Shown here: piece by piece, positions 36,076 to 56,400 of the stretch
Numbering within the stretch: position 1 is the stretch's first letter
How the letters are laid out: every line of letters begins with the position of its first letter
Origin: Dehalococcoidia bacterium
Lineage (GTDB): Bacteria; Chloroflexota; Dehalococcoidia; UBA6926
Direction of reading: 5' to 3'
Length of the DNA stretch: 64,000 nucleotides
Assembly: GCA_965247995.1 (NCBI GenBank)
Contig: OZ252041.1
Location: 811,912-875,911 of the forward strand
Notes under the pieces: generated by a model
Database searches by the model: none
The model's input: the letters and a program-made list of their open reading frames with translations, nothing else
Told to the model about the DNA's origin: nothing
Program-made: the position numbers and the translations under genes

Positions 36076-37026
36076 TCAGAAGGGACGGTCTGGTTGGCGG
36101 GCGGTGATCTCTTCGCGGCAGAGCTCGTAGAAGGAGCAGTTGGGGCAGGCGGCGATGTCGTCCCGGAGCGGGAAGGAGTCGCGGTCGCGGGGTTCGTTCT
36201 TCTCGACGTCGCGGAGGTAGGTGCGCATAGCGGCCACGCTGCCGGCGATGGTACGTCCCGTCTGATCGATGTCCTCGGCGGAGAAGATGTGGACGGCGGC
36301 ATTGCCGCTGTTCAGCCACTCGACGCGCGCCCGCACGGTCTCGGCCCCGTAGCGTTCTTTAATAAAGAGCGCGTAGACGGCGACTTGGTCCCAATCCGGC
36401 TCTTCGTAGAGGCCGGTCTTCCAATCGGTCACGGTCCACGAGCCGTCGCCGAGCCGGTAGTGGAGGTCGGGTACCGCGAAGACCTTGGCTGTGGCGATCT
36501 CGAGGGGTTCCTGCAGTTGCTCAGGGCGGATTTCGACGGCGGGAGCGGCGAGCGCTTGGCGGTAGCTTTCGCTGACGCGGAGGTTGGTGAGGCAGCGGAC
36601 AACGTGGTCGCGGGCCTCGGTTATCTGCAGGGGTGAGAGGCCTTCGCCGTAGTAGGAGTCGTGGAACATCTTCCAGCGGTTGGGTTGGCGCTCCCAATTA
36701 CGTCGCTCCTTGGACTGCAGCCAGGCGTGGTTGAGGTCGCTGCGGACGCGGTCATGAAGCTCGTCGAAGGAGGGTTCGGGGAAGCCGTCCCTGACGCGCT
36801 GGATGGCGTGTCGTGCGGCGTCGTGGACCGCGCCGCCGATCTCGATCGGGAGTGTGGTGAGCTGTTTGAGGCGGTAGACGGTCCGGGTCGCGTCGTCGGC
36901 AGAGGCGAGCCAACCGTTGTGTGAGCTGTAGTACTGGTAGTAGTACTTGCGGGGGCACTCCTGGAAGGTGGAGCGCCGGGTGTGCGACCAGGAGAAGTCT
37001 GGAAAGGGGCGGATTTCGAAGGCCAT
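36076..37026 (-). CDS. PD-(D/E)XK nuclease, Cas4/AddB-like with an Fe-S staple
   Basis: SWS..FQECPRKY, IGGAVH, PD..TDWKTG, QVAVYA, CPNCSFYELC; start MAFEIRP. Confidence 0.85.
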   Translation of the reverse strand: MAFEIRPFPDFSWSHTRRSTFQECPRKYYYQYYSSHNGWLASADDATRTVYRLKQLTTLPIEIGGAVHDAARHAIQRVRDGFPEPSFDELHDRVRSDLNHAWLQSKERRNWERQPNRWKMFHDSYYGEGLSPLQITEARDHVVRCLTNLRVSESYRQALAAPAVEIRPEQLQEPLEIATAKVFAVPDLHYRLGDGSWTVTDWKTGLYEEPDWDQVAVYALFIKERYGAETVRARVEWLNSGNAAVHIFSAEDIDQTGRTIAGSVAAMRTYLRDVEKNEPRDRDSFPLRDDIAACPNCSFYELCREEITARQPDRPF

Positions 37027-37205
37027 TGGGGGTCGCGCGTTTCTCCAGAGGTTCGGGACGGGTCGAGGATACTCCAGAGAAGCCGGTTTGGAATGGCCGG
37101 GTGGCGTGTTTCGCATGGGGCGTCCTTGTCCGTGGAAGGAACGATTCATAGACTCACCGTGATGACTCCTACACCTGCCCCAACGCAACGTCGCACGGAA
37201 ACCGT

Positions 37206-39101
37206 TTGATCTTTCTACGCCGTCTGGTGGCGCTGCTCCTGATCCCGGCAGCGATGGGGCTGATTGCTGGGGCGACCGGTGTCGCGGTGGTGGACCGGAC
37301 GTTTCTCGAAGCGACGTTTTGGACGGGCCGCCTCGAAGCAATCGACGCATACGAGCGGACGTTGACGGAGATCCTGCCGGCGGCGGTGACGGAGATTTCT
37401 GAACCCGCTCCGGGCGGGGCGGAATTCGACTTCACGCGCGTTGAAGACGACATCGTTCGTGTCGCGCGGGAGGTGGTCCCGCCGAAGTGGGTTGAAGATG
37501 GAGTGGCGGGTGCGCTCGAGGGCTTGTTGCCGTACGCCTCCGGCGAGACGGACACCCTGGAGGTGGCGATTCCGATCCGTGACCGGATCGAGGCCGCCGC
37601 TGCGGCGCTGAAGCGCGAGGCGCAGAACCCGTCCGTTTACCTGCCGCTGTACGACGAGGGCGTCAGTTGGGGCGCCACGCGGATCGTGCAGAGCACCGCG
37701 GGCAGCGAGGTGGCGATCGACCTGACGGAGGACGAGGCGGCGTCGTTCTTGAGACGGATCGTCCCCGCAGAGTGGCTGCAGGCGAGCATCGGCGAAACGG
37801 TGGACGCCGCCCTACCATACCTGGTCAACGAAGTGGATGGATTCGCGGTAACGATTGACTTGGAGGAACGGATCGATTCGTTGGCTGAGGTCATGAAGGA
37901 GGTGTTCGCGAAGGCGGACACGGACCGCCTGATCGTCGATGAGATCGTGATGCCGGCGGTGGCGGAGAACCTGGATAACCGAGTCGCGGTGGTCGACGGC
38001 GTCGGGTTTACGTCGGTGGAGATCCTCGAAGCGGTCCGGGACACGTTGACTCCGGATTGGTTGGCCGAGATCCGCGGGTCGTCGATCGACCGTGTCGCCG
38101 ATTACACGACGGGCCGCGCGGACAGCCTGCAGGTAACCATCGAACTCGGGGACCGGACAGCCTGGGTCGTCGACGCATTGGCCCCACGGGTCGAAGAGGC
38201 TCTGGCGGCCGAATACGCCGCGCTGCCTGTGTGCGTCCTGGAGGAAGAGACGGGGATGGGTCAAGGTCTCCCGATGTGCCGCCAGCCGGGTGTCCGCTAC
38301 GAGGAGTTCATCTCGGGCCGCGAGCTCGATCCGGTCGCGGCGGTGGCTTCTGCATTGGGGCCGTTGGTCCCGGACGAATTGGTCATCGACGACGCCCGTT
38401 TTCGCGGAGTGATCGGACCGATAGCGAGTGAGTTGTTGGACGACGTCCGGGCTTGGTCGCAGGAGGGGTTCACGGTCTCGCACGAAACGTTGCTAGAGAA
38501 TTTCGACCTGGAGGACCGTGAGTGGTTCAACGATATTCGGGTCGCTGGCGCGTTGACGCTCGTTGATGAAAAGGACATCGAACGGTACGTGGTCGGTGAG
38601 GAGGCACCGACCGCGGACGGTGAACGCTCCCCGATTCGCATCGGTCCATGGGTCACTCGCTTGGACTGGATCGCGGCGGCGCTGGTGCTCGTGATCGGCG
38701 GACTTGCGGGCCGGAACTGGGGGAGCCGGCTGGTGTGGACGTGCGTCCCGCTGGTGATGGGCGCAGGGGTGGTGTGGGTCTTGGCGTCGCCGGTGTACGA
38801 CGCGATTGGCCCGAGTTTGTGGGAGAGTGCGCTGGACGAGGCACTGATTGGGAGCGAGTCGGCGGTTGCGCAACTGGGGACCGAGCTGTGGGTGGAGTTC
38901 CTGCGTGCCGTGACGAACGAATTCGCCGCCGGGCTGGCTGGCACGAGCATCACGCTGTTGACACTGGGTTGCGGGGGTCTGGTGGTCGGGACCATCTTGC
39001 ATGTGATCCTCAGAGGCCGGCGACGACCCGAAGCGGGACGACCGGGAAGGGGTCCGGTTGTGGCGTCGCGGCAACGCTCCGGGGGAACGCCGTTCGGCTA
39101 A
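37206..39101 (+). CDS. Large membrane protein with internally repeated extracytoplasmic domains
   Basis: N-terminal TM, three P..W..Y..G..D..(V/I) repeats, three C-terminal TMs. Confidence 0.72.
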   Translation: MIFLRRLVALLLIPAAMGLIAGATGVAVVDRTFLEATFWTGRLEAIDAYERTLTEILPAAVTEISEPAPGGAEFDFTRVEDDIVRVAREVVPPKWVEDGVAGALEGLLPYASGETDTLEVAIPIRDRIEAAAAALKREAQNPSVYLPLYDEGVSWGATRIVQSTAGSEVAIDLTEDEAASFLRRIVPAEWLQASIGETVDAALPYLVNEVDGFAVTIDLEERIDSLAEVMKEVFAKADTDRLIVDEIVMPAVAENLDNRVAVVDGVGFTSVEILEAVRDTLTPDWLAEIRGSSIDRVADYTTGRADSLQVTIELGDRTAWVVDALAPRVEEALAAEYAALPVCVLEEETGMGQGLPMCRQPGVRYEEFISGRELDPVAAVASALGPLVPDELVIDDARFRGVIGPIASELLDDVRAWSQEGFTVSHETLLENFDLEDREWFNDIRVAGALTLVDEKDIERYVVGEEAPTADGERSPIRIGPWVTRLDWIAAALVLVIGGLAGRNWGSRLVWTCVPLVMGAGVVWVLASPVYDAIGPSLWESALDEALIGSESAVAQLGTELWVEFLRAVTNEFAAGLAGTSITLLTLGCGGLVVGTILHVILRGRRRPEAGRPGRGPVVASRQRSGGTPFG

Positions 39102-39139: not shown

Positions 39140-39188
39140 TTGACGCAAGTCGCTCATTTGTGCTACTGATGGTGCGAACATCGGTTCG
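39140..39188 (+). promoter_or_regulatory. lexA promoter with SOS box
   Basis: TTGACG at 39140 and TACTGA at 39164; perfect CGAAC-ATCG-GTTCG at 39175-39188 (Gram-positive/Chloroflexota LexA consensus). Confidence 0.85.
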
Positions 39189-39245
39189 CTATTCAACGGC
39201 GGGCCTGAAGAACGGGCACGCGAGCGAAAGCTGAGGTGGCACACG

Positions 39246-39875
39246 ATGACCAGTCTGAGACCACGACAACGGGAAATCCTGAAGTTCATCGAGCAGTTCA
39301 TGGATGAGCGGGGGTACCCGCCGACGGTGCGGGATATCCAGCACGGGTGCGGGGTCTCGTCGACGAGTGTCGTGGACTACAACCTGCGGGCGCTGACGAG
39401 AGCGGGGTTGTTGAGGCGGTCTCGCGAGGTGTCGCGGGGGATCGAGCTTGTGGGCCGTCGGCAGCGGACGGCACGAGTCCCGCTGTTGGGGACGATCGCG
39501 GCGGGTCAGCCCTTGCCGGTCTTTCCGGCGGATCCGGCGGTGCTGGAGGAAGAGGACACAGTGGAAGTCGATGCCGATCTCGCACGCGACAGCGAGCGCC
39601 TCTTCGCGCTCCAGGTCAAGGGAGATTCGATGATCGACGCGCTGATCCGCGACGGCGACGTGGTGATTCTGCAGGCGCAGGAGTACGCCGAGAGCGGGGA
39701 GATGGTCGCCGCTTGGCTCGTCGATTCCGAGGAGACGACGTTGAAGCGTTTCTATCCGGACGGTCCGCGGGTGCGGCTCCAACCGGAGAATACGACGATG
39801 GGCCCGATCTACGCGGACGCGCGCAACGTCCAGATCAAGGGCCGGGTGGTCGGGGTGTTACGCCGGTACGCGTAG
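39246..39875 (+). CDS. lexA: SOS repressor LexA
   Basis: GYPPTVRDI, SRGI, cleavage site IAAG.P, GDSM (Ser), TLKR (Lys). Confidence 0.96.
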   Translation: MTSLRPRQREILKFIEQFMDERGYPPTVRDIQHGCGVSSTSVVDYNLRALTRAGLLRRSREVSRGIELVGRRQRTARVPLLGTIAAGQPLPVFPADPAVLEEEDTVEVDADLARDSERLFALQVKGDSMIDALIRDGDVVILQAQEYAESGEMVAAWLVDSEETTLKRFYPDGPRVRLQPENTTMGPIYADARNVQIKGRVVGVLRRYA

Positions 39876-46668: not shown

Positions 46669-47703
46669 TCAGTCGGTGATGCGCGCGGGGACGGCGAGGG
46701 TGGCGTTGTCCGGGTGGGTGCTAGTGGGGAACGGGGCGCCGGGGTCTGGGGATGCTGACCGGACCTGGAGGTCGAGCGCGGCGCCCAAGATGTCCGCGCC
46801 GACGTTGGATACGACCACTGCGAAGGCGATGAGCGTTACGGTTAGCTCTACGACTGGGTAGTCGCGTTGGTTGATCGCACCCACGAGCATGCGTCCGATG
46901 CCAGGGAGGCCGAACGCCTGCTCGGTGACGACGAGGGCCGTGACGGTCAGAGGGAGCATGACCGCGATCAAGGATACGGCTGGGATCAGGATGTTGGGCA
47001 ACGCATGGCGGAGGAGGACTGCGCGGTCGCGAAGCCCCCTCGCACGGGCGGTACGGATGTAGTCCTCGCGTAGGACCTCGAGTGTGGCAGTCCGGACGAA
47101 CCGCAATGGCACGCCCATGAGGAGGCCCGTGCCGATCACCAAGGCCGGCCAGATGAGCTGGGTGAGGTTCCTGACGGGGTCCTCCGTGAGGCGGGTGTAT
47201 TCACCGGTAGGATCCCAGCCGAACTCGCGGACGAGAACAAGAATGACAAGCATCCCGGCCCAGAAAGTGGGGACAGAGACGCCAGCTAGGGCCACAGTGC
47301 GCATGACAGAGTCGACCCAGGCGCCCCGTTTGAGGGCGGCGATAAGGCCGGCGGCGACGCCGAACGTCGAGCCGATGACGATGCCCAAGACACCGATCTG
47401 CGCACTGAGGGGGAGTTTCCGTTGCAGATACTGGCTCATGGGATCGTTGTGGAAGACCGAGTTTCCGAAGTCGAAGGTGAGAAGCCCGCGCACCCAGTCG
47501 AAGTACTGGACGTAGAGGGGCTCGTCCAGGCCTAGGTGCTCTCGGAACCTCGCTATGTGGTCGGGGTTCGGTACACCGCCGCCGGCGAGGATCGGCGGCG
47601 ACAAATCGCCTGGGACGATGCGCATGACGATAAAGACGAGGATTGTGACGCCGAAGAGGGTCAGCGCTGCGAGCAGGAGGCGGCGGAGGATGTAGGTCCT
47701 CAT
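46669..47703 (-). CDS. Peptide/nickel ABC transporter permease (DppB/OppB)
   Basis: YILRRL, PGD, GLDEPLYVQY, EAA loop EDYIRTARARGL, RDYPVV. Confidence 0.92.
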   Translation of the reverse strand: MRTYILRRLLLAALTLFGVTILVFIVMRIVPGDLSPPILAGGGVPNPDHIARFREHLGLDEPLYVQYFDWVRGLLTFDFGNSVFHNDPMSQYLQRKLPLSAQIGVLGIVIGSTFGVAAGLIAALKRGAWVDSVMRTVALAGVSVPTFWAGMLVILVLVREFGWDPTGEYTRLTEDPVRNLTQLIWPALVIGTGLLMGVPLRFVRTATLEVLREDYIRTARARGLRDRAVLLRHALPNILIPAVSLIAVMLPLTVTALVVTEQAFGLPGIGRMLVGAINQRDYPVVELTVTLIAFAVVVSNVGADILGAALDLQVRSASPDPGAPFPTSTHPDNATLAVPARITD

Positions 47704-47853: not shown

Positions 47854-48812
47854 CTACGTGCGGATCCGGGGGTCGAGTATCCCGTAGAGGACGTCGACGC
47901 CGAGGTTGGACAGGACGACGATGAACCCGACGAGGGTGACGACGAGCTGGACAACCGGGTAGTCACGCTGGTTGATGGCGTCGACCATCATGCGGCCGAT
48001 TCCGGGGAGGCCGAACACCTGCTCGGTGACCACGAGCCCGGTCACGGTGAGGGGGAGGAAGATCCCGATCAGCGTGACGACCGGTATGAGAGCGTTCCGC
48101 ATGGAGTGCCGGATGAGGACGACGCGTTCGCGGAGCCCCTTTGCCCGGGCGGTGCGGATGTAGTCCTCGCGCAAGACCTCGAGCATGGTGGCGCGCATCA
48201 TCCTGAGCGGGGTGCCCATGAGGAATCCGACGGCGATGACCATGGTGGGCCAGATGAGTTGCGCGAGGTTCCTGATGGGGTCCTCCCACACGGGCGTGTA
48301 TCCCTGCTCCGGGATCCAGTCGAACATGTGGATGAGGAACAGGATGACGAGCATTCCGCTCCAGAAGGTGGGGATGGAGATGCCGGCAATGGCGACCGTC
48401 CGGATGAGGTAGTCGATCCAGGTGTCCTGCTTGAGGGCGGCGATGACTCCGCCGGCGATGCCGAGCGTCGAGCCGATGACGATGCCCATCACGCCGATCT
48501 GAGCGCTAAGAGGGAGTTTGCGTTGCAGAAGCTGGCTCATGGGGGCGTTGTAGAAGAGCGAGCTCCGAAGTCGAAGGTGACGATCCCGCGCATCCAGTCG
48601 AAGTACTGGACGTAGAGGGGCTCGTTCAGGCCCAACTTCTCTCGGAGCCTCGCCAAGTCTTCCTGGTTTGGTACGCCGCCGCCTTCACCACCGCTGAGAA
48701 TCATCATCGCGACATCGCCGGGGACGATGCGCATGACGATAAAGACGAGGATTGTGACGCCGATCAGCGTCGGCACGCCGAACATAAGGCGCCGGAAAAT
48801 GTATGCCCACAT
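47854..48812 (-). pseudogene. DppB-type permease paralog with a 1-nt frameshift near 48563
   Basis: ORFs 48537-48812 and 47854-48540 join into a full DppB if one base is restored (FDFG-x-SLFYNAPMSQ versus paralog FDFGNSVFHNDPMSQ); this could be a sequencing error. Confidence 0.8.
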
Positions 48813-49723: not shown

Positions 49724-50272
49724 CTACTCCAGGGCAGGTGTAGGGGCCGCCGCGGTCGGTTCGGGCGTTGGGATGACTGGGCCAGGGGTGGGGGCGGCTG
49801 GGTCGGGTGTCGGGGCGGTCGGATCCGGCGTGGGGGTTGGCGTGGACGTCGGTCTGGGGGTGTTGGTGGGTTTGGCGGTCTCGTAGGGGACCCAGACGCG
49901 GACGGGCTCGGTGGGGGTGCCCTCTTCGTTGCCCCGGACGAGCAGCGCGCGGAAGTAGTAGGCGCGGCCGGGACGGTAGATGGCGGATTCGCGGTGGGTG
50001 CCGGTTACGGGCCGGAGGGTGGCAATCTCCTCCCACGGGCCTTGATCGGAGGTCCGGGACTCTTCGATGACGATGAGGTCGACGGAGTCGTCGGGAGGAA
50101 TCCATGAGACCTGGACATCGCGAGAGCCGGCGACGGGCTCGCCGGGCAGGAGCCGTGCCTGGAAGGAGAGGGTGTTGGACGCGGGCAGCGGTCTGAAGTT
50201 CTGGGAGATGCCCGAGCACGCGACAACGAGGCCAAAGAGGACCACGACGACTGCAACGACGGTTCCGCGCAC
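49724..50272 (-). CDS. Lipoprotein with FN3-like domain and Pro/Thr-rich tail
   Basis: Lipobox VVAC; VQVSW..YYFRA beta pattern; PTPTP repeats. Confidence 0.7.
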   Translation of the reverse strand: MRGTVVAVVVVLFGLVVACSGISQNFRPLPASNTLSFQARLLPGEPVAGSRDVQVSWIPPDDSVDLIVIEESRTSDQGPWEEIATLRPVTGTHRESAIYRPGRAYYFRALLVRGNEEGTPTEPVRVWVPYETAKPTNTPRPTSTPTPTPDPTAPTPDPAAPTPGPVIPTPEPTAAAPTPALE

Positions 50273-50434
50273 ACTCCACCTCGAGTAGTCCGGCCGCGTC
50301 GACCGCGGCGTTTGAATCGACTGTACACGGATTGAGGAGGTAAGAGCAGCATGGTGCGTTGTGGCGGCCCCACTGGCCGGGTTGACGTGAACCGTTTAGA
50401 GAGGCGAGTGGGGAGGCACGTCGTCATGATGGCG

Positions 50435-50463
50435 TTGACGGATTAGCACATTCGTTCTAGTGT
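50435..50463 (+). promoter_or_regulatory. Sigma70 promoter with a LexA-like operator in the spacer
   Basis: TTGACG(50435)-17 nt-TAGTGT(50458); AGCAC-ATTC-GTTCT at 50445-50458 is one mismatch from AGAAC-N4-GTTCT. Confidence 0.65.
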
Positions 50464-50497
50464 TCTGTGTCGAATTCGCTAACTGAACGCAGGGGGA

Positions 50498-50899
50498 GTG
50501 AGCGTGGCGACCAAGACACAGGGACCGAGCGTGGCGACCAAGACACAGGGACCGAGCGTGGTCCGCCGGGGGACGGGGAGCCGACGGCGTTTGGACACGC
50601 TGCCGGAGCGGTCCGAGTACCGCGACGACGGGTGCGGTGGGGGATGCGAGCGTTCGCTGGAGTGCCCGTTCCCGCGTTGCCGGCTTGATGACCCGATGGG
50701 TTGGCGGCGGGAGGCGCGCGTGATCCGGGACCGGGAGCTTGTGCGGGTCTATGCGGCGGAGGGGTTGACGGTCGACGGGTTGGCGTCGCGGTTCCAGGTC
50801 AGTCGCCGGACGGTGCACCGGGTGCTTTCGGACGCCCGGAAGGCGCGAATCCGTGGGGAGGCCCGAATCCGTAAGGGCGCGGGGGCTGGTGCGACGTGA
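50498..50899 (+). CDS. Cys4-motif plus C-terminal HTH protein (putative regulator)
   Basis: GGGGGA RBS; C-x3-C-x5-CP-x3-C; RDRELV..GLTVDGLASRFQVSRRTVHRVL HTH. Confidence 0.78.
   Translation: MSVATKTQGPSVATKTQGPSVVRRGTGSRRRLDTLPERSEYRDDGCGGGCERSLECPFPRCRLDDPMGWRREARVIRDRELVRVYAAEGLTVDGLASRFQVSRRTVHRVLSDARKARIRGEARIRKGAGAGAT
50500..50561 (+). repeat. 27-bp in-frame tandem repeat (2.3 copies)
   Basis: GAGCGTGGCGACCAAGACACAGGGACC twice plus GAGCGTGG; encodes SVATKTQGP twice. Confidence 0.9.
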
Positions 50900-51438
50900 C
50901 GTCCGACGAATCTCCCGCTCCTGCTGCAGGCGGGCGCAGGAGGCGTCGTGGTGTCGGGAAGCGCGACGAACAGCGGTACGAGGACTTCGTGTGGGCGGTC
51001 GCCCGCGGCGCGACGCACGCGGAAGCAGCCGCGGCCGCCGGGATCGCGCGGACGACGGCGATGCGTTGGGCAAAGTCTGCCGGGTTCGACACGTATGTGG
51101 CCGCGGCGGCCAACGACAGCGTGGCGATGTTGCGGAAGCGGGCGTTCGAGCTAGCAATGGGTGGGAACATCCGGCTGCTCATTTGGTTACTCGAGCACCG
51201 CGGGGTGATCGGAGAGCGAGAGGACGGTGGTCCGGACGGGCCGCCGGCTGAGCATGGTCCGGCGGGAGTGGTAGAGGTCGAGATCGTGGGGTTGGAGCGG
51301 AGGGATGCCGACGATGGCGAAAGCAGCAACAGCGGCGGGGGCGGCGGCCGGCACGCGCCGGCCGAGCCGGGAGACGCCGGAGGGGCGTTCATCGAGTTCG
51401 TCGAGGACGACGGTGGGGGCGTCATCGACGGCACGTAA
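50896..51438 (+). CDS. Putative terminase small subunit (HTH)
   Basis: GATHAEAAAAAGIARTTAMRW HTH, helical middle ending GNIRLLIWLLEHR, flexible tail; GTGA overlap upstream and overlap with terL downstream. Confidence 0.65.
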   Translation: MTSDESPAPAAGGRRRRRGVGKRDEQRYEDFVWAVARGATHAEAAAAAGIARTTAMRWAKSAGFDTYVAAAANDSVAMLRKRAFELAMGGNIRLLIWLLEHRGVIGEREDGGPDGPPAEHGPAGVVEVEIVGLERRDADDGESSNSGGGGGRHAPAEPGDAGGAFIEFVEDDGGGVIDGT

Positions 51439-52642
51439 GGTCCGGATCCGGGTCCACGAGGGGCAACGGCGGCTGCTGGCGAGCGATGCGTTCTGCACGG
51501 CGGCGATTGCCGGGACGGGCGGCGGTAAGACGGTCGCCGGGATGGTGTGGTTGTTGGTGCAGATGACGCGGAACCCAGGCCGGACGTGGGTCGTGGCGGA
51601 GCCGACGGACGACATGGTCGAGCGGGTCCTTTTGACTGGCACCGCGGACCGGCTGGGGCTTGTCGACTTTCTGGGGTTGTTCGACCCGCACCAGGTATGG
51701 CTTCGATCGAAGGGGGTGCTGCGGCACCGGTTGGGGACGGTGTTTGTGGTGTCGGCACGGAACCCGGAGACGTTGCAGGGCGCCCACGTGGCGGGGGTCT
51801 GGCTGGACGAGGCCGGTCTGATGCGGATGGGGGCCTGGCTGGTGGCATTGCAGCGGGTTGGGCTGGCGGAGGGACGGATCCTGATTACGACGACGCCATA
51901 CAACAAGGGTTGGCTGAAGACGGAGGTGTACGACCCAGCGATGGAGGGGAACCGGGACTACGCGCTGATCCAGTTCCCATCGACGGCGAACCCGCGGTTC
52001 CCGGCGGTGGCGATGGAGCGGGCGCGGCGGTCAATGTCGGCATCGCGGTTCGCAATGTTGTACCGGGGGGAGTTTGGGCGGCCAGAGGGGATGGTGTACG
52101 ACTGCTTCGATTCGTCGGAGCACATCGTGGAACCGTTCGAAATCCCACGCGATTGGCGGCGGTTGGGCGGGATCGATTTCGGGTACAACAACCCGACCGC
52201 GGGGGTGTTTCTGGCGCGTGACCCGGACGGCGTCTACTACTGGTATGGGGAGCACTACGAGCGGGAACGGACGCTGGACGAGCACGCGGCGCAGTTGGCG
52301 AAGCTGGGCGGGCGCGAGTTGACGTGGTATGGGGACCGGAGCGCGGCCCAGCAGATGGCGGAGCTGCGGCGGAACCGGCTGTCGGTGCTGCCGGCGGATA
52401 ACGACGTGCGCGCAGGGATCGACACCGTGTATTCGTTGTTGGCGTTGGGGCGCTTGAAGGTGTTCCGTTCGTGCCGGTTCGGGATCAACGAGCTCGAGGG
52501 GTACGTGTGGGAACAGCGTCCCGGCGGGGACGGGGCGGGGTTCGTCGACCGGCCGGTGAAGGAAGACGACCATTTGATGGACGCGTTGCGGTACGCGTTG
52601 CATACGACGGAGAAAGGACCGGCGTTGCGGTTGCGGACGTGA
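51413..52642 (+). CDS. Phage terminase large subunit (PBSX/Terminase_6-like)
   Basis: HEGQ adenine motif, Walker A AGTGGGKT, Walker B VWLDEAG, coupling motif TTTP, nuclease GIDFGYNNP, D.SA, DHLMDALRY; GTG start with GAGG RBS. Confidence 0.92.
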   Translation: MGASSTARKVRIRVHEGQRRLLASDAFCTAAIAGTGGGKTVAGMVWLLVQMTRNPGRTWVVAEPTDDMVERVLLTGTADRLGLVDFLGLFDPHQVWLRSKGVLRHRLGTVFVVSARNPETLQGAHVAGVWLDEAGLMRMGAWLVALQRVGLAEGRILITTTPYNKGWLKTEVYDPAMEGNRDYALIQFPSTANPRFPAVAMERARRSMSASRFAMLYRGEFGRPEGMVYDCFDSSEHIVEPFEIPRDWRRLGGIDFGYNNPTAGVFLARDPDGVYYWYGEHYERERTLDEHAAQLAKLGGRELTWYGDRSAAQQMAELRRNRLSVLPADNDVRAGIDTVYSLLALGRLKVFRSCRFGINELEGYVWEQRPGGDGAGFVDRPVKEDDHLMDALRYALHTTEKGPALRLRT

Positions 52643-52729
52643 GGTCGGGCGGGGGTGCCGCTGGTACGCGGGACCTATAGCGCGTTGGTATACGATCGCG
52701 AAGGAGTCCGCCATCGAGGCCAGGTGACA

Positions 52730-53371
52730 ATGATGAAGTCGACAGCATCAGCGGGGTTGGCCGCTTTGGCTGTCCTCTTGGCGATTTTGGGTTGTTCTGC
52801 TCGCTCAGGGGGTTTGGCGGCCGTCGACGAGCCGGAAGCAGCGGGCGATGACGTGGTTTCGGTCCCGGCGAGGGTCACGCAACTCGGGTTTCCGGTCCTG
52901 TATCCGGCATTCATGCCGCCCGGCTACGAGCTGATCAGCGTGGACCTCAGCCCTCATTGGGACTCCAAGGTTGTTTTCGTGTCCGGTCCTCCCGGAGCTA
53001 CTTGGAACCTGGACGGTGGGAACTGGAAGCAGGGAGGGCTCTACATCATCACCATGGGCGTCCACGCGGGCGCTCCGCTTCCTCCGTTCGGACAGATCGT
53101 GAACCCGCATGAGCGCATCGAGGTCGCCGGCCGCTCTGTATACCTCATTCAAGGACAAAGTGACCCGGTGTTTTCTCTCGCCGAGGGGTCGCCGGAGCGG
53201 CGTCCAACTGGACCGAACGGCGAGGAGCTCCTGTTTGAACCAATCGACGTTCTTGGTCTTGACCTGGAACTGGATGGGTTCTTGGTCTCGATGTCGGCGA
53301 TCCCGCCGCATTCATCAACGCCCGAGGTACTCATCAAGATCGCGGAATCCCTCGTATTGGTAGGAGCGTAG
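52730..53371 (+). CDS. Lipoprotein, DUF4367-like
   Basis: Lipobox ILGC; FPVLYPAFMPPGY; C-terminal PEVLIKIAESL. Confidence 0.7.
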   Translation: MMKSTASAGLAALAVLLAILGCSARSGGLAAVDEPEAAGDDVVSVPARVTQLGFPVLYPAFMPPGYELISVDLSPHWDSKVVFVSGPPGATWNLDGGNWKQGGLYIITMGVHAGAPLPPFGQIVNPHERIEVAGRSVYLIQGQSDPVFSLAEGSPERRPTGPNGEELLFEPIDVLGLDLELDGFLVSMSAIPPHSSTPEVLIKIAESLVLVGA

Positions 53372-53495
53372 TCGCGTCTTGTTGCGATAGGAGGAGTTTG
53401 GACCGCGGCAATCGCGCTCCCTAAAGAGCACTGGCCGTTCGCTTCGAGTCGGACCGTGGGTGGCAGTGGATTTGCCGCCGGGAACCGCCGAAAGT

Positions 53496-56400
53496 CTAGA
53501 CGGTGAGGCGGCGGTAGAGGTGGGGCAGGCGCTCTGGGAGGCTGTTGATGTCGGCGAGGACCTCGTACGGGAGGTCGCCGCACATCTCTTTCATGTAGTC
53601 GTGGCCGGAGCGATCTACGGTGAGGCAGAAGGGGATGATGCCGTGCGAGCGGGCCTCGAGCAGCGCCATGTGCGTGTCCTGGACGGCGTATTCCTTCTCT
53701 GCGCCTTCGCGGCTGTACCCGCGGTCCTGGGGCCGGCCGTCTGAGATGAGGAAGAGGACCTTGGTGCGGGCGTTGATCTCGTCGAGCTTGGCGGTGCCGT
53801 GGCGGATGGCGGGGCCCATGCGGGTGGCGTGGAGCGGCGTAATGCCATCGATCCGGCGCTGGATGGTGTCCGACATCGGTTCTTCGAGCGCCTTGATGGT
53901 GTAGTACTCGACGTTTTCGCGTCCGTAGCCGGAGAAGCCGTAGATGCCGTAGGTGTCGCCGATCGTCTCGAGAGCCCGAATGAGGAGGACGGTGGACTCT
54001 TTCTCGAGGTCGATGATGCGGCGGTAGCTGCGTTTGGCCTGCTCGCGGCGGGCGCGGAGCCAGAAGAGGTACTGTCGCGGGTCGTCCGGGATCTCGCCCT
54101 CGTCGTCGTCATCGGCGGGTTTGTCCTCGATGGCTTCGGCGGTGGATGCGCTCATATCGAGGAGGAAGATGACGGCGACATCGCGCTCGGTCTTGTTCCT
54201 GCGCCAGTAGACCTTCTCGTTGGGGGTTGTGCCGGAGCGGCGCTCGACGATGGCCTCGATGACGGAGTCGAGGTCGTATTCCTCGCCGTCGGGGAGGTGT
54301 TTTTCCTTGCGGTAGGTCTCCGGCATGATCATTTCGAACTGCCGGCGGACGTCGTTGATGAGGCTGGCGTACTGCTCAATGGTCTGGCGGTAGAAGTCGG
54401 AACTGCCCTCGGCGATGACGGTCTCGCGGATCCGGCACCAGCGGGGTTTGTAGTCGAGGGCTTGGAAGTCCCACTCGTCGTAGAGGGCGGTGCGGGGTTC
54501 GTCGTCGAGTGGGTTCTCGGACTCCTGGGGTTTTCTGCCGGAGCCCGTCTCGCCCATCTCGTCGTGGAACTCGGCGTCCGGCCCCTCGATGGCCTCGCTC
54601 ATGAGGCTGGAGACGAAGAGCCCGGACGGGTCGTCGATGTCGCCTTCGACGACGTTGGAGAGGTCGATCTCGGCGCTCTTTTCGAGGAGTTGGCGGATCA
54701 TCTCCTCGGTGAGGGGAGGCGCCTGAGTGGTCTCGTCGGTCTTCTGGCCGCCCTTGCGAAGGTTGGCGAGGGTCTGGACGAGCTCGGGTTTGAAGTCACC
54801 GCGGTAGTCGACCTCTTCGGGGGGCTCGTACGGGACGTCCTGCTCGGTGCCCTGTCCGGGGACGAACTGGTTGCCACCGACGGTGGATGAGTCGGCGTCC
54901 GAGATCTCGGCTGTCGGGTCCGGTGCGCCCGCGCCGAGTTCACCAACGTCCTCTTCCTGCCAGTCGAAGTCGTCCTGGGGCGGCAGGTTGGGCACATCGA
55001 CGAGGAGTTTGTAGATAAGCGCCGTGGCCTCGGTTGAGTCCTCGACGGTGGAGTCGATGTGGCGCAAGCGAAGGAGGACTCCTGCGACGCGTTGGACGGT
55101 GTCGTGGAGCTCCATGGGCACGGGGATCGTGGAGGGCGAGTCCAGGAGGGTCATGCGCACGAGGAGCTCAACGAGGGCCTGCCGGAGCGGGAGGTCTTGC
55201 GGGGCGGGCCGTCCGTGAACCGCCGCCATCTGTACTTTGTCGTACGCGTTGCGGAGGCCGGCGTAGAAGCTGCGGATAAGGAAATCGACGCGCGAACCCT
55301 CGACGGCGGAGAAGATATCGGAGGCGAGTTGACGTTCCTCGAAGGTGTCGAAGAAGCGCTCGAAGTCCGAGAGGGCGGCGTCGAGGCCGGGGATCTCGCT
55401 CTTGTCTTCGGCGTCGTCCCCGTTCGGGGAGGGGCGCGTCAGCACCGGTGCGAGGCGAGCAAGGATCCGATTGGTAGCAGGGAAGACGCTTGAGGGGCGG
55501 CTGGTGGAGAACTGGAAGCTCCCGAACTCGATGTGGCCCGCCTGGTGGGTGGTGAGCACTTTGTACCACCCGAAGTTGTCGGGTTTGGAGTCGAAGAGTG
55601 CGATCTCATCGGGAAGAAAGATCGAGAGCCCGTCCGTGGTTGGCCGTGCTTCGCCGGCCCATCCGAGGGTGCGGCGGGCGAGGTCCGGTGTCGGTCTGAG
55701 TTGGATCTCGCTACCCGCGAGGCCGCGGGCGTACATCTGGAGAACGGTCGCGCTCTCCTCGAGGTTCACGGTGGCCGAGAGTTCTTGGATGATCGCTTCG
55801 CCGCGGGCGGACTCGAGTTTGAAGAAGCCGATGCCGGCTGCGTCGTTCTGTTCGAGGATGCGGACGCCTTCCTGGTACCAGCGGTTGAGTGCACCGGCGT
55901 CGACGCGCTGGAGGACTGGCGGCGTGGCACGAAGGAATTCAACCGCGGCTTCCTGAGAGAGGCCGAGGAGCACTTCGAACATGTCGAGGGTGGAGTGGTG
56001 GAGGTGGACGTCCAAGTCGTCGAGCGCGCGTGAGCCCTCGGCGAGCAGCGAGAGATAGCGTTTGCCGCGTTGCTGGGCCATGGCGCCGGCGAAGTCGAGG
56101 AAACGACCGCGCTCAGCACGGGCGATCCGCGGGAGTGCGACGGCTGCGGCGCGCTGGGTCTCCTTGGCGTACTTCCAGCCCTGTTCGGCGGTGAGATTGA
56201 GGAGGCCGAGGTAGCTGTCGATGGTCTCGCCGTCCACGTAGGAGAAACACTCGGGAGCGATGTTGAGGCACTCCTCGGCAAGCTCGCTGGAGTGCTGAGC
56301 GATCTGGTCGAGGAAGGCGGCGAATGCGGTGACGTCCGTGAGGCGGACGTGGTCCAGGAGGGTGGGACTGAGCTCAAAGAAGCGGGCAGCGAGGGCACCG

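Follow-up and report, generated by a model that had tools for sequence, protein, structure and literature searches.

A four-cysteine helix-turn-helix protein encoded at the head of a terminase gene pair in Dehalococcoidia: a putative SOS-gated regulator of phage-derived genes

The window, by which we mean the whole stretch of 64,000 nucleotides under analysis, carries an open reading frame for a protein of 133 amino acids (REG), verified at the coordinates of Table 1, whose stop codon TGA (50897–50899) overlaps the GTG start (50896) of a gene for a small-terminase-like protein (terS), the 3' end of which is overlapped in turn by the gene for the large terminase subunit (terL). REG is translationally coupled to terS–terL in the window, and the overlap leaves no separate terS promoter there for REG to activate. 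The 4-nt overlap is likewise kept in G002, a genome of the same genus, whose TerS ortholog is 54% identical. The start of terL is uncertain, the candidates being ATG at 51305 or 51314 and GTG at 51413, and its translation contains the Walker A motif GTGGGKT. As to REG itself, the Shine–Dalgarno spacing and the G002 ortholog suggest that translation may in fact begin at the second GTG (50504). The perfect 27-bp tandem repeat near the 5' end of the gene was ruled out as an operator: G001 and G002, both congeneric with the window genome, have a single copy, so that the repeat is a lineage-specific, in-frame duplication of nine codons and not a conserved operator.

Table 1. Features at the REG locus and at lexA, with positions counted from the first nucleotide of the window
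Feature	Position	Strand	Basis or remark
Divergent secreted or lipoprotein-like gene, 182 aa, synteny anchor	49724..50272	-	
REG gene, Cys4 plus HTH protein	50498..50899	+	Alternative start GTG 50504
In-frame perfect 27-bp tandem repeat of 2.3 copies, duplicating SVATKTQGP	50500..50561	+	
Cys-cluster codons C46-x3-C50-x5-C56-P-x3-C61	50633..50680	+	Family alignment
Three-helix HTH (helices 66-88, 92-99, 103-128)	50693..50881	+	AF2 model, fold comparison
TerS-like gene, 180 aa	50896..51438	+	phrog_4102 terminase small subunit 5.3e-6; HTH_23 sub-threshold
TerL gene	51305..52642	+	Terminase_6C 1.2e-13, Terminase_6N 3.2e-6, phrog_2 1.2e-42
-35-like hexamer TTGACG, proposed REG promoter	50435..50440	+	Conservation
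LexA-type (Cheo-like) box GCAC-ATTC-GTTC, promoter spacer	50446..50457	+	Homologous position in relatives
-10-like hexamer TAGTGT	50458..50463	+	17 nt past the -35
lexA, presumed repressor of the REG promoter	39246..39875	+	TIGR00498 5.3e-54, over cutoff; LexA_DNA_bind and Peptidase_S24 domains
Perfect palindromic SOS box GCGAACATCGGTTCGC, upstream of lexA	39174..39189	+	

The three genes are under purifying selection, with dN/dS values of 0.22–0.29 for REG (against the G001 and G002 orthologs), 0.28 for TerS, and 0.11–0.17 for TerL (against G002), at dS values ranging from 0.6 to 1.3. Their flanks are housekeeping genes; genes for portal, capsid, tail, lysis, or integrase are absent from the vicinity, and the separate prophage that the window genome (G000; 93% complete, one contig) harbors at 1.18–1.21 Mb carries a terminase of its own. 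Neither a portal (PF05133) nor phrog_212 was matched anywhere in G000, which genome has lost the portal and the capsid of the REG-linked system.

Residues 35–61 of REG read LPERSEYRDDGC-GGG-C-ERSLE-CP-FPR-C, which is exactly the pattern C-x3-C-x5-CP-x3-C; the cysteines are C46, C50, C56, and C61, and are followed by RDRELVRVYAAEGLTVDGLASRFQVSRRTVHRVL. The first-pass annotation, which had described a Cys4 and HTH reading frame heading a terminase operon, was accurate in the motif, in the HTH, and in the place of the gene before the terminase pair. That description had included a metal- or Fe–S-binding role, and in agreement with such a role the four clustered cysteines are kept in 147 of the 147 aligned members of the family, which retention places the motif far above chance. 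Positions C46, C56, and C61 are invariant, and the second cysteine stands at either of two positions: by a script count the spacing is C-x5-C-x2-C-x4-C in 128 members and C-x3-C-x5-C-x4-C in 16, while of the remaining members two were judged by eye to have four cysteines and a third has five. In a quick tree the 3-5-4 subtype is separated from the other members by one branch (SH-aLRT 91). The full retention, together with the compensatory shift of the second cysteine, argues for a putative metal or Fe–S site.

The AF2 model of REG is confident across residues 71–120 (pLDDT 94–98), and the recognition helix of the HTH carries the near-invariant SRRT-x2-R. VIA-align related this domain at Z 6–7.3 to LuxR/GerE-type proteins, sigma region 4, Mu C, Mor, DeoR, and the N-terminal domain of a TerS; Mu C (9l0x_G, Z 6.9) and Mor (1rr7, Z 6.0) stood level with some 50 further HTH entries, and sigma region 4 folds scored Z 5.6–6.8. 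Mor and sigma-70 region 4, to which a likeness had been noticed in the sequence, are thus among the matches of the predicted fold, but these structural resemblances, as modelled, are generic, and the corresponding Pfam models stayed below their cutoffs, both for Mor (PF08765; 13.5 bits, cutoff 24.9) and for sigma-70 region 4 (PF04545/PF08281; Sigma70_r4 18.1 bits, cutoff 24.1, and 17.4 bits, cutoff 25.7). The same was true of HTH_11 (21.7 bits, cutoff 25) and HTH_23 (21.5 bits, cutoff 24.6), and no NCBIfam model passed. A Foldseek search of REG against PDB and BFVD returned nothing at E ≤ 1e-3; a sequence profile search of the PDB matched the HTH part alone (best E 2.6e-4), the ESM Atlas gave only hypothetical or HTH_23 clusters from Chloroflexota, and the best PHROG was number 836, "late transcriptional activator" (E 8e-5). 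Thus, as had been stated at the outset, REG fits no named family in Pfam, NCBIfam, the ESM Atlas, or the PDB profile search.

Upstream of REG we propose, from conservation, a promoter whose spacer contains a LexA-type box. The -35 hexamer is conserved as TTGAC(C/G/A) in G001, in G002, in ten cassette promoters of a sister genus (g2), in three genomes of a further genus (g3), and in G026; the -10 aligns with TAGTCT/TAATCT in the window organism's own genus, with TATTCT in g2, and with TATCTT in g3. A consensus scan called no sigma-70 site at 50100–53600, which outcome we attribute to the weak -10, and a scan of the whole of G000 found no second site of this promoter design. The window box departs from GAAC-N4-GTTC at a single core position (GCAC for GAAC), and at the homologous position stand GTAC-N4-GTTC in G001 and G002, GAAC-N4-ATTC in the g2 cassettes (10 of 11), GAAC-N4-GATC in g3 (3 of 3), and two perfect boxes in G026. 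A box between the -35 and the -10 of the REG or cassette promoter is accordingly found in 3 of 3 genomes of the own genus, 10 of 11 g2 loci, 3 of 3 g3 genomes, and G026, that is, in every lineage examined of the window organism's order, which distribution bears out the expected link between the homologs and LexA boxes. Of the 120 loci, 109 have 200 nt or more of upstream sequence (78 genome and 31 viral), and in these a promoter-linked box lies on the coding strand in 37 of the 78 and 15 of the 31, against 4 and 0, respectively, for the opposite-strand control. The REG box agrees in type with the organism's own boxes, namely the one upstream of lexA (Table 1) and that of recA (GCGAACATCCATTCGC), and in G026 the promoter of lexA is built like that of REG. 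At its proposed promoter REG therefore has a putative LexA box of the type used by the organism itself, as would be expected of a member of the SOS regulon.

REG is a member of a large protein family, as yet without a name, from Chloroflexota viruses, which comprises 1074 representative clusters within Chloroflexota at E ≤ 1e-3, whose neighborhoods we surveyed at 120 related loci in viral contigs and chromosomal cassettes. An SPP1-type portal gene (assigned by PF05133, 9e-22) lies directly downstream of REG in 101 of these 120 loci, which adjacency confirms the association with phage genes that had been anticipated for the homologs. The gene order in viral contigs is REG–portal–scaffold–MCP–adaptor, and TerL lies just upstream of REG in 66 of the 80 genome loci. 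Within the window organism's family REG occurs in 24 of 24 genomes, at a single syntenic site across three genera, and homologs of the 182-aa anchor gene stand divergently beside the cassette or REG promoter in 11 of 11 g2 and 3 of 3 g3 loci. The placement of REG immediately before terS is confined to the window genus (the window and G002) and is found at none of the 120 other loci, in which tblastn likewise detected neither the window-type TerS and TerL nor the downstream lipoprotein (0/120). Relatives of the window TerL occur at 26 loci of viral contigs (best identity 39%); a full REG is absent from all 26, with HTH-only matches in three.

In the sister genus g2 the cassette reads terS–terL–REG–portal, and an operon of capsid, adaptor, and hub genes, with the same promoter design, lies 45–110 kb away. 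REG, portal, and MCP are each present in 19 of 19 g2 genomes, at fixed sites and in one copy per genome, and median dN/dS values of 0.095 for TerL (21 pairs), 0.075 for the portal (21 pairs), and 0.078 for the MCP (10 pairs) indicate that the cassette and the capsid operon are under strong purifying selection. By its apparent vertical inheritance and by this selection, g2 would qualify as the bearer of a candidate domesticated system resembling a gene transfer agent (GTA); the window genome, having no portal or capsid, does not. The g2 capsid promoter has a LexA-like box in 18 of 19 genomes, a poor -35 (TTGCRG), and, abutting the latter, the conserved palindrome-like TGTG(C/A)CACATGG, which design would suit an activator working together with LexA release. 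In G000 that motif has two loose matches, neither followed by a box. The first-pass annotation had envisaged REG as relaying SOS induction to dispersed packaging or structural genes. Dispersed genes of this kind do exist in the sister genus, but in the window genome, where neither portal nor capsid nor a second promoter of this design was found, such a relay would have no dispersed target; moreover, the LexA-like box that the distant g2 capsid operon itself carries (18/19) means that its coupling to the SOS response needs no relay through REG.

The explanation that we consider best, and to which we give about an even chance, is that REG binds a metal, is gated by the SOS response, and activates packaging and head genes of phage origin; we infer each of these functions, namely metal binding, DNA binding, activation as opposed to repression, occupancy of the box by LexA, and the targets. 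REG would be a phage-derived DNA-binding protein in which a Cys4 metal site (Zn or Fe–S) precedes an HTH like that of sigma region 4 or Mor, and its gene occupies a fixed chromosomal place in the bacterial family, with a putative LexA operator in the promoter spacer, so that REG would be made once DNA damage removes LexA. In the window genome that operator would be weakened through its one core mismatch. REG would then most likely serve as a positive transcription factor for the packaging and head genes that travel with it, being placed first in the portal–scaffold–capsid operon of free viruses, inside the terS–terL–REG–portal cassette of the sister genus, and in coupling to terS–terL in the window. 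The adjacent terS–terL pair is the sole identifiable REG target in the window genome, which observation counts against this explanation. So do the core mismatch of the window box, the lack of a terS promoter of its own, the generic nature of the HTH matches, the LexA-like box that the g2 capsid operon already has, the position of the prophage paralog of REG in an early region with no LexA box, and the persistence of REG in relatives that lack particle genes, which suggests that it does more than switch on such genes.

A different possibility, which we regard as rather unlikely, is that REG was recruited by the host as an SOS regulator with non-phage targets, or else is a LexA-controlled antirepressor-like switch, the linkage to packaging being merely historical. 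REG in fact stands alone behind LexA boxes in several relatives: in the three g3 genomes, streamlined to 1.2–1.3 Mb, where it lies between a lipoprotein gene and gyrB behind strong boxes; in G026, with its two perfect boxes; and in G001, which, though of the window genus, has no terS–terL. G040 likewise keeps REG without particle genes, and terminase, portal, capsid, and hub found no match in any of these six genomes, which retention of REG points to a role beyond the particle genes. The presence of REG in 36 of 41 related genomes, almost always in a single copy, and its dN/dS of 0.22–0.29 would also fit such a recruitment. In G000, however, neither a host target nor a shared motif was found, and the recruitment must be set against the portal that adjoins REG in 101 of 120 loci, the carriage of REG by the viruses themselves, and the translational coupling to terS in the window. 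We know, in addition, of no classical antirepressor that is an HTH protein with a metal site, which counts against the antirepressor variant.

We find it distinctly improbable that REG is a packaging accessory, marking the packaging site for terminase and portal in the manner of a small terminase or together with one. Its constant position beside TerL, the portal, or both would agree with such a function, as would the absence of a detectable HTH from the presumed TerS of the common cassette (c4, about 110 aa). In the viruses, however, variable minus-strand genes separate REG from TerL, but never from the start of the operon; REG is kept in genomes with no terminase or portal match; and the window TerS bears an HTH of its own, albeit at a sub-threshold HTH_23 score. 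The resemblance of the REG HTH to the N-terminal domain of the G20C small terminase (4xvn, Z 6.5), which might otherwise favor the accessory role, is tied with dozens of HTH proteins. The REG paralog of the window genome's prophage, moreover, resides in the early region, among recombination and replication genes, and has no LexA box.

That REG–terS–terL is an inert remnant of a decayed prophage appears very improbable, since the housekeeping flanks devoid of other phage genes, the frame break in the G002 TerL (near L156:1304), and the loss of terS–terL from G001, all of which would fit decay, are opposed by dN/dS values of 0.11–0.29 at dS 0.6–1.3 for all three genes, by a syntenic site in three genera with conserved promoter and operator, and by the occurrence of REG throughout the family (24/24).

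As a putative SOS-gated activator of packaging and head genes, REG may be compared with the Ltr superfamily (RinA, ArpU, LtrA, LtrB, LtrC), the late activators of Gram-positive phages (PMC3753634, PMC3152322). According to the account in PMC3753634, the ltr genes lie just before terS, are expressed after SOS induction, and activate the packaging, morphogenesis, and lysis operon; LtrA has a sigma70_r4-like region, and the Ltr proteins are under the control of the phage cI and bind repeats within the promoter that separates ltr from terS. REG resembles them as a small phage-encoded protein, and the REG–terS–terL order of the window fits the ltr layout. It differs, however, in having no match to RinA, ArpU, or DUF1492 (NCBIfam at E ≤ 0.1, Pfam at E ≤ 1); in its Cys4 cluster, which the Ltr proteins lack as there described; in a direct LexA-type operator in place of cI control; and in the overlap with terS, which leaves no intergenic repeat promoter, most REG genes moreover preceding a portal. 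With Mor and C of Mu (PF08765; 1rr7, 9l0x) REG shares its small size and a presumed action at activator-dependent phage promoters with a poor -35, and its predicted C-terminal HTH compares with theirs in fold at scores that many unrelated HTH proteins equal, but those proteins have no cysteine cluster, and the Mor model gives REG the sub-threshold score cited above (13.5 bits for a cutoff of 24.9).

Small zinc-binding (Cys4) phage proteins that turn on late genes include Ogr/Delta of P2/P4 and the lambda Q antiterminator; Ogr/Delta, however, have no HTH and a different cysteine spacing, and REG has no such Pfam match at E ≤ 1. The WhiB-like [4Fe-4S] proteins of Actinobacteria and their phages are likewise small, have four cysteines spaced C-x(n)-C-x2-C-x5-C, and act at sigma region 4. 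REG shares with these the four cysteines, including a C-x2-C-x4/5-C stretch, the small size, and the frequent encoding by phages; a phage WhiB model ranked 20th for REG in BFVD, far from significance (E 0.35, TMq 0.40). In contrast to WhiB, the first cysteine of REG is only 3–5 residues off, the protein has an HTH of its own, and no WhiB-family Pfam match was obtained at E ≤ 1. Finally, GafA is described as the direct activator of RcGTA in Alphaproteobacteria (PMC6363796, PMC9638019), and the likeness, so far as those accounts go, is conceptual: a dedicated regulator encoded along with dispersed domesticated phage-particle genes, which for REG are those of the sister genus. REG differs from GafA in its LexA-type operator, and the window genome has no dispersed particle genes.

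A more speculative joint reading, which we hold to be improbable, would make REG the master switch of an undescribed LexA-gated domesticated phage-head (GTA-like) system of marine Dehalococcoidia, in which an Fe–S cluster on the four cysteines would sense a second signal (redox, iron, or oxygen) and REG would act at the palindrome abutting the weak -35, so that the particle genes would fire only if damage and the second signal coincided. The window genome would then have been whittled down to REG and a selected terminase pair, perhaps now serving the capsids of the resident prophage, and the most streamlined relatives would keep REG only, which would form a novel arm of their SOS response.

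Small late-operon activators are, to our knowledge, known for few phage groups, and we know of none described for Chloroflexota. A search of the literature on gene transfer agents together with Chloroflexi gave no such system among the matches listed; none was found joining Dehalococcoidia with terminase and portal, and the one on Dehalococcoides prophages and LexA returned only reviews or genome papers on other subjects. Throughout an entire group of Dehalococcoidia viruses, and in their vertically inherited chromosomal descendants, the head and packaging genes are marked by this single unnamed family. For annotation, the signature [LP]PE-x3-Y-x-D-x-GC...C-x-CP-x-P-x-C together with SRRT-x2-R could define a new family model. 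The conserved Cys4 cluster, HTH, and LexA operator make up a testable circuit, from DNA damage to REG and from REG to particle genes, which circuit concerns the candidate domesticated particle system of a lineage that is uncultured and ecologically important; and the survival of REG in genomes without particle genes makes it a candidate for a phage regulator recruited into the stress response of its host.

The reading frame of REG was confirmed at 50498..50899 (+), and its translation contains the three elements that the first-pass annotation had described, namely the ORF itself, the Cys motif and the helix-turn-helix (HTH): the product reads LPERSEYRDDGC-GGG-C-ERSLE-CP-FPR-C, followed by an HTH with SRRTVHRVL at its end. 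A Shine–Dalgarno sequence, GGGGGAG, lies at 50492-50498, whose spacing, together with the comparison with the ortholog of the congener G002, indicates that the second GTG, at 50504, may be the start, while the TGA stop overlaps the GTG of a TerS-like ORF. A perfect 27-bp tandem repeat at 50500-50561 duplicates nine codons, and since this repeat is missing in both congeners (G001 and G002) we took it to be a recent in-frame duplication.

The claim that REG belongs to no named family also held, because in Pfam the models HTH_11, HTH_23, Sigma70_ECF, Sigma70_r4, HTH_7 and Mor all remained below threshold, and no NCBIfam model exceeded its cutoff; the top PHROG was 836, annotated as 'late transcriptional activator' (E 8e-5). 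Membership in RinA, ArpU, Mor, sigma-r4, WhiB or Ogr was rejected by the curated models. A word-indexed protein search returned 14 proteins and an exhaustive one 1074 representative clusters at E<=1e-3 (141 at E<=1e-10), the ESM Atlas neighbours being, without exception, Chloroflexota hypothetical or HTH_23 clusters. Surveying the taxonomic range, we found REG in 107 species genomes, nearly all titled Chloroflexota or Dehalococcoidia, 80 of which were kept for analysis, and in 40 viral contigs.

Four clustered cysteines were present in all 147 aligned members, with D43, C46, L54, C56, C61 and R108 invariant and P36, E37, Y41, G45, P57 and R104 almost so. The spacing was C-x5-C-x2-C-x4-C in 128 members versus C-x3-C-x5-C-x4-C in 16, the window's REG among the latter; two fell outside the pattern search, their four cysteines being found by eye, and one carried five. 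From these two spacings at a constant four cysteines we deduce that the second ligand was relocated, a shift classically indicative of a metal site. In a quick tree, one side of a branch (SH-aLRT 91) consisted of the 3-5-4 subtype (37 rows). REG thus encodes a conserved, predicted four-ligand site, for either Zn or Fe-S, plus an HTH. In the AlphaFold2 model (pLDDT 83.8) the N-terminus is disordered, the Cys region is rich in loops (pLDDT about 80), and three helices are confident (66-88, 92-99 and 103-128). Foldseek gave no match to PDB or BFVD at E<=1e-3; VIA-align, whose matches span residues 68-126 only, gave tied Z values of 6-7.3 for LuxR/GerE-type proteins, sigma region 4, Mu C, Mor, DeoR and the small-terminase N-domain; and PDB sequence-profile matches were confined to the HTH, so that none of these searches found a solved relative of the Cys module.

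We clustered all the ORFs around REG in 120 loci, naming the clusters by Pfam and PHROGs. An SPP1-Gp6-type portal gene lay directly downstream of REG in 101 of them (median gap 39 nt, counted from the end of the matched part), which association with phage-like genes had been anticipated. The viral contigs, in which a divergent Ig-domain gene often precedes the operon, run REG-portal-scaffold-MCP-adaptor and onwards to a protein of roughly 660 aa, the major capsid protein (MCP) being SU10-like (phrog_212, 1e-68). Among the genome loci, 66/80 have the cassette c4-TerL-REG-portal, c4 being a small ORF, flanked by housekeeping genes (HD and HIT proteins, M48 peptidase, ABC exporters, RuvB, ValRS), with a scaffold or MCP nearby in only 9-13 of the 80; TerS or TerL of the window type occurred in none of the 120. 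Eight of the 40 viral contigs (L085, L087, L089, L090, L094, L097, L103, L111) start no more than about 45 nt from the REG match, which suggests a putative genome end or provirus-cutting boundary just upstream. In Dehalococcoidia loci L003, L004, L010, L027, L028 and L146, ruvB lies within a few kb downstream of REG or the portal cassette, which proximity may be a coincidence of synteny.

REG was carried by 36/41 related genomes, including 24/24 of the same family, almost always as a single copy. In the sister genus g2 the c4-TerL-REG-portal cassette (11 loci examined) is preceded by a divergent gene homologous to the 182-aa ORF of the window (49724..50272), which makes the two sites syntenic. 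Portal and MCP were each found in 19/19 g2 genomes; the cassette and the MCP are 45-110 kb apart, the latter in an operon of MCP, adaptor and 660-aa protein surrounded by host genes. The 660-aa protein, recognized by neither Pfam nor PHROGs, has an N-terminal beta-propeller and a C-terminal half that Foldseek matched (E 3e-17 to 1e-11) to the fold of baseplate hubs, Mu gp44, gp27 or VgrG. Median dN/dS in g2 was 0.095 for TerL, 0.075 for the portal and 0.078 for the MCP, at dS about 0.8. In our genome, G000, and its congeners neither this portal nor this MCP was found: G002 has REG-terS-terL, and G001 REG alone. The G002 terL (L156:909-2104, in a 62%-complete MAG) consists of two frames meeting near 1304, which a frameshift or an error of assembly would explain. 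REG also stands alone in the g3 genomes (1.2-1.3 Mb), at the syntenic site and followed by gyrB and era, and in G026, between unrelated genes; no match to TerL (phrog_2), hub, portal or MCP appeared in g3, G026 or the further relative G040 (completeness 84-97%). Within our own genus, dN/dS was 0.22-0.29 for REG, 0.28 for TerS, 0.11-0.17 for TerL and 0.085 for a nearby housekeeping gene.

Apart from this locus, G000 carries what looks like a complete prophage at 1.18-1.21 Mb, with a CI/LexA-like S24 repressor, RecT, a replication initiator, a DnaC-like loader, a cytosine methylase, its own TerS and TerL, and large structural ORFs that match no PHROG. Its early region encodes a REG paralog (102 aa, 58% identical, 3-5-4 Cys type), ahead of which no LexA-type box was found.

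Positions and supporting matches of the features discussed (window positions unless a locus or genome is named)
Feature	Position	Strand	Remarks
PD-(D/E)XK nuclease gene	36076-37350	-	upstream of lexA
631-aa ORF overlapping it	37206-39101	+	upstream of lexA
Perfect box of lexA	39174-39189		GCGAACATCGGTTCGC; upstream of lexA
lexA	39246..39875		within window
REG promoter	50435-50463		-35, 17-nt spacer holding LexA-type box (one core mismatch), -10
TerS-like ORF	50896..51438	+	phrog_4102, 5e-6
TerL	ends 52642	+	overlapped by TerS-like ORF; Terminase_6C 1e-13, phrog_2 1e-42
g2 cassette promoter	homologous place		GAAC-N4-ATTC, 10/11
g3 REG promoter	homologous place		GAAC-ATAT-GATC, 3/3
G026 REG promoter			two perfect boxes, 1/1
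G026 lexA promoter			GAAC-GTTT-GATC, 1/1; same design as REG promoter
G000 prophage	1,177,000-1,210,000 (L121, L122)
Roughly 660-aa hub-like protein	L150:11951-13939 and relatives (alignment A3)		end of capsid operon

The PD-(D/E)XK gene and the 631-aa ORF, which has no Pfam match, are overlapping candidate frames, either of which may be the real one. Elsewhere in the window two ORFs, one with the N-terminal domain (48537..48812) and one with the BPD_transp_1 domain (47854..48540, both -), together make up a broken ABC permease paralog (47854-48812), probably a duplicate that was frameshifted, next to an intact 344-aa paralog (46669-47703, -).

The promoter region before REG reads TTGAC(G/C)-N5-G(C/T)AC-N4-GTTC-TA(G/A)T(G/C)T in G000, G001 and G002 alike, and this arrangement of -35, box and -10 is found again at the corresponding place in g2, g3 and G026 (table). 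The recA box of G000 is GCGAACATCCATTCGC, and perfect boxes precede lexA in G006, G007 and G011. Accepting promoter-linked boxes with at most one mismatch in the 109 loci scanned (11 of the 120, with <200 nt upstream, were dropped), we found a box upstream of REG on the coding strand in 37 of 78 genome loci and in 15 of 31 viral ones, there of the type GAAC-N4-GTGC immediately before REG, and an opposite-strand box in 4/78 and 0/31, which counts uphold the proposed link to LexA boxes. A predicted LexA-type operator thus accompanies the REG promoter throughout the lineages of the order examined. In 18/19 g2 genomes (5/5 in a first set, 13/14 in a second) the promoter of the capsid operon shows the order TGTG(C/A)CACATGG, TTGCRG, N5, G(T/C)AC-N4-GTTC, TTATCT; this promoter therefore combines a weak -35, a LexA-like box of its own and, 2 nt before that -35 (L150-L154, L198-L211), a conserved palindrome-like element. 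The palindrome is a candidate activator site, which the g2 cassette promoter shares in looser form, a related TGTG..CATGG lying before its -35. Genome searches of G000 found the palindrome essentially absent and the REG promoter to be the sole match to its own design.

The most economical mechanism, to which we give about an even chance, is that REG acts as an SOS-gated positive regulator: the LexA-type operator would gate its expression on SOS induction, its product would activate the phage-derived packaging and head genes, and in g2 REG and LexA could together make up a feed-forward loop at the weak promoter of the capsid operon. We go no higher because REG persists alone in several lineages, G000 lacks a recognizable distant target, and the distant g2 capsid operon has a LexA-like box of its own, which three points argue against a pure particle-gene activator. 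The dispersed targets foreseen by the first-pass annotation have a counterpart in the g2 capsid operon, but no recognizable one in G000. In layout the proposed regulator is analogous to the Ltr/RinA activators, whose genes, according to PMC3753634, are placed before terS, as REG is in the window, and also to Mu C and Mor; as far as layout tells, it would function as late activators do in other groups of phages. A host-exapted SOS regulator or switch, with which the solitary copies agree, seems to us unlikely beside the portal adjacency in most loci. A packaging-specificity factor is more doubtful still, the small-terminase match being tied with dozens of other HTH proteins. That REG is an inert remnant we consider very improbable, given its dN/dS.

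REG is, then, a phage-derived, selected and vertically inherited gene, whose historical partners are the genes for packaging and heads in a group of Dehalococcoidia viruses. What this analysis adds is the definition of the REG family together with its cysteine signature, the putative LexA-type operator common to the REG, cassette and capsid promoters, and the finding that REG outlives all the particle genes.
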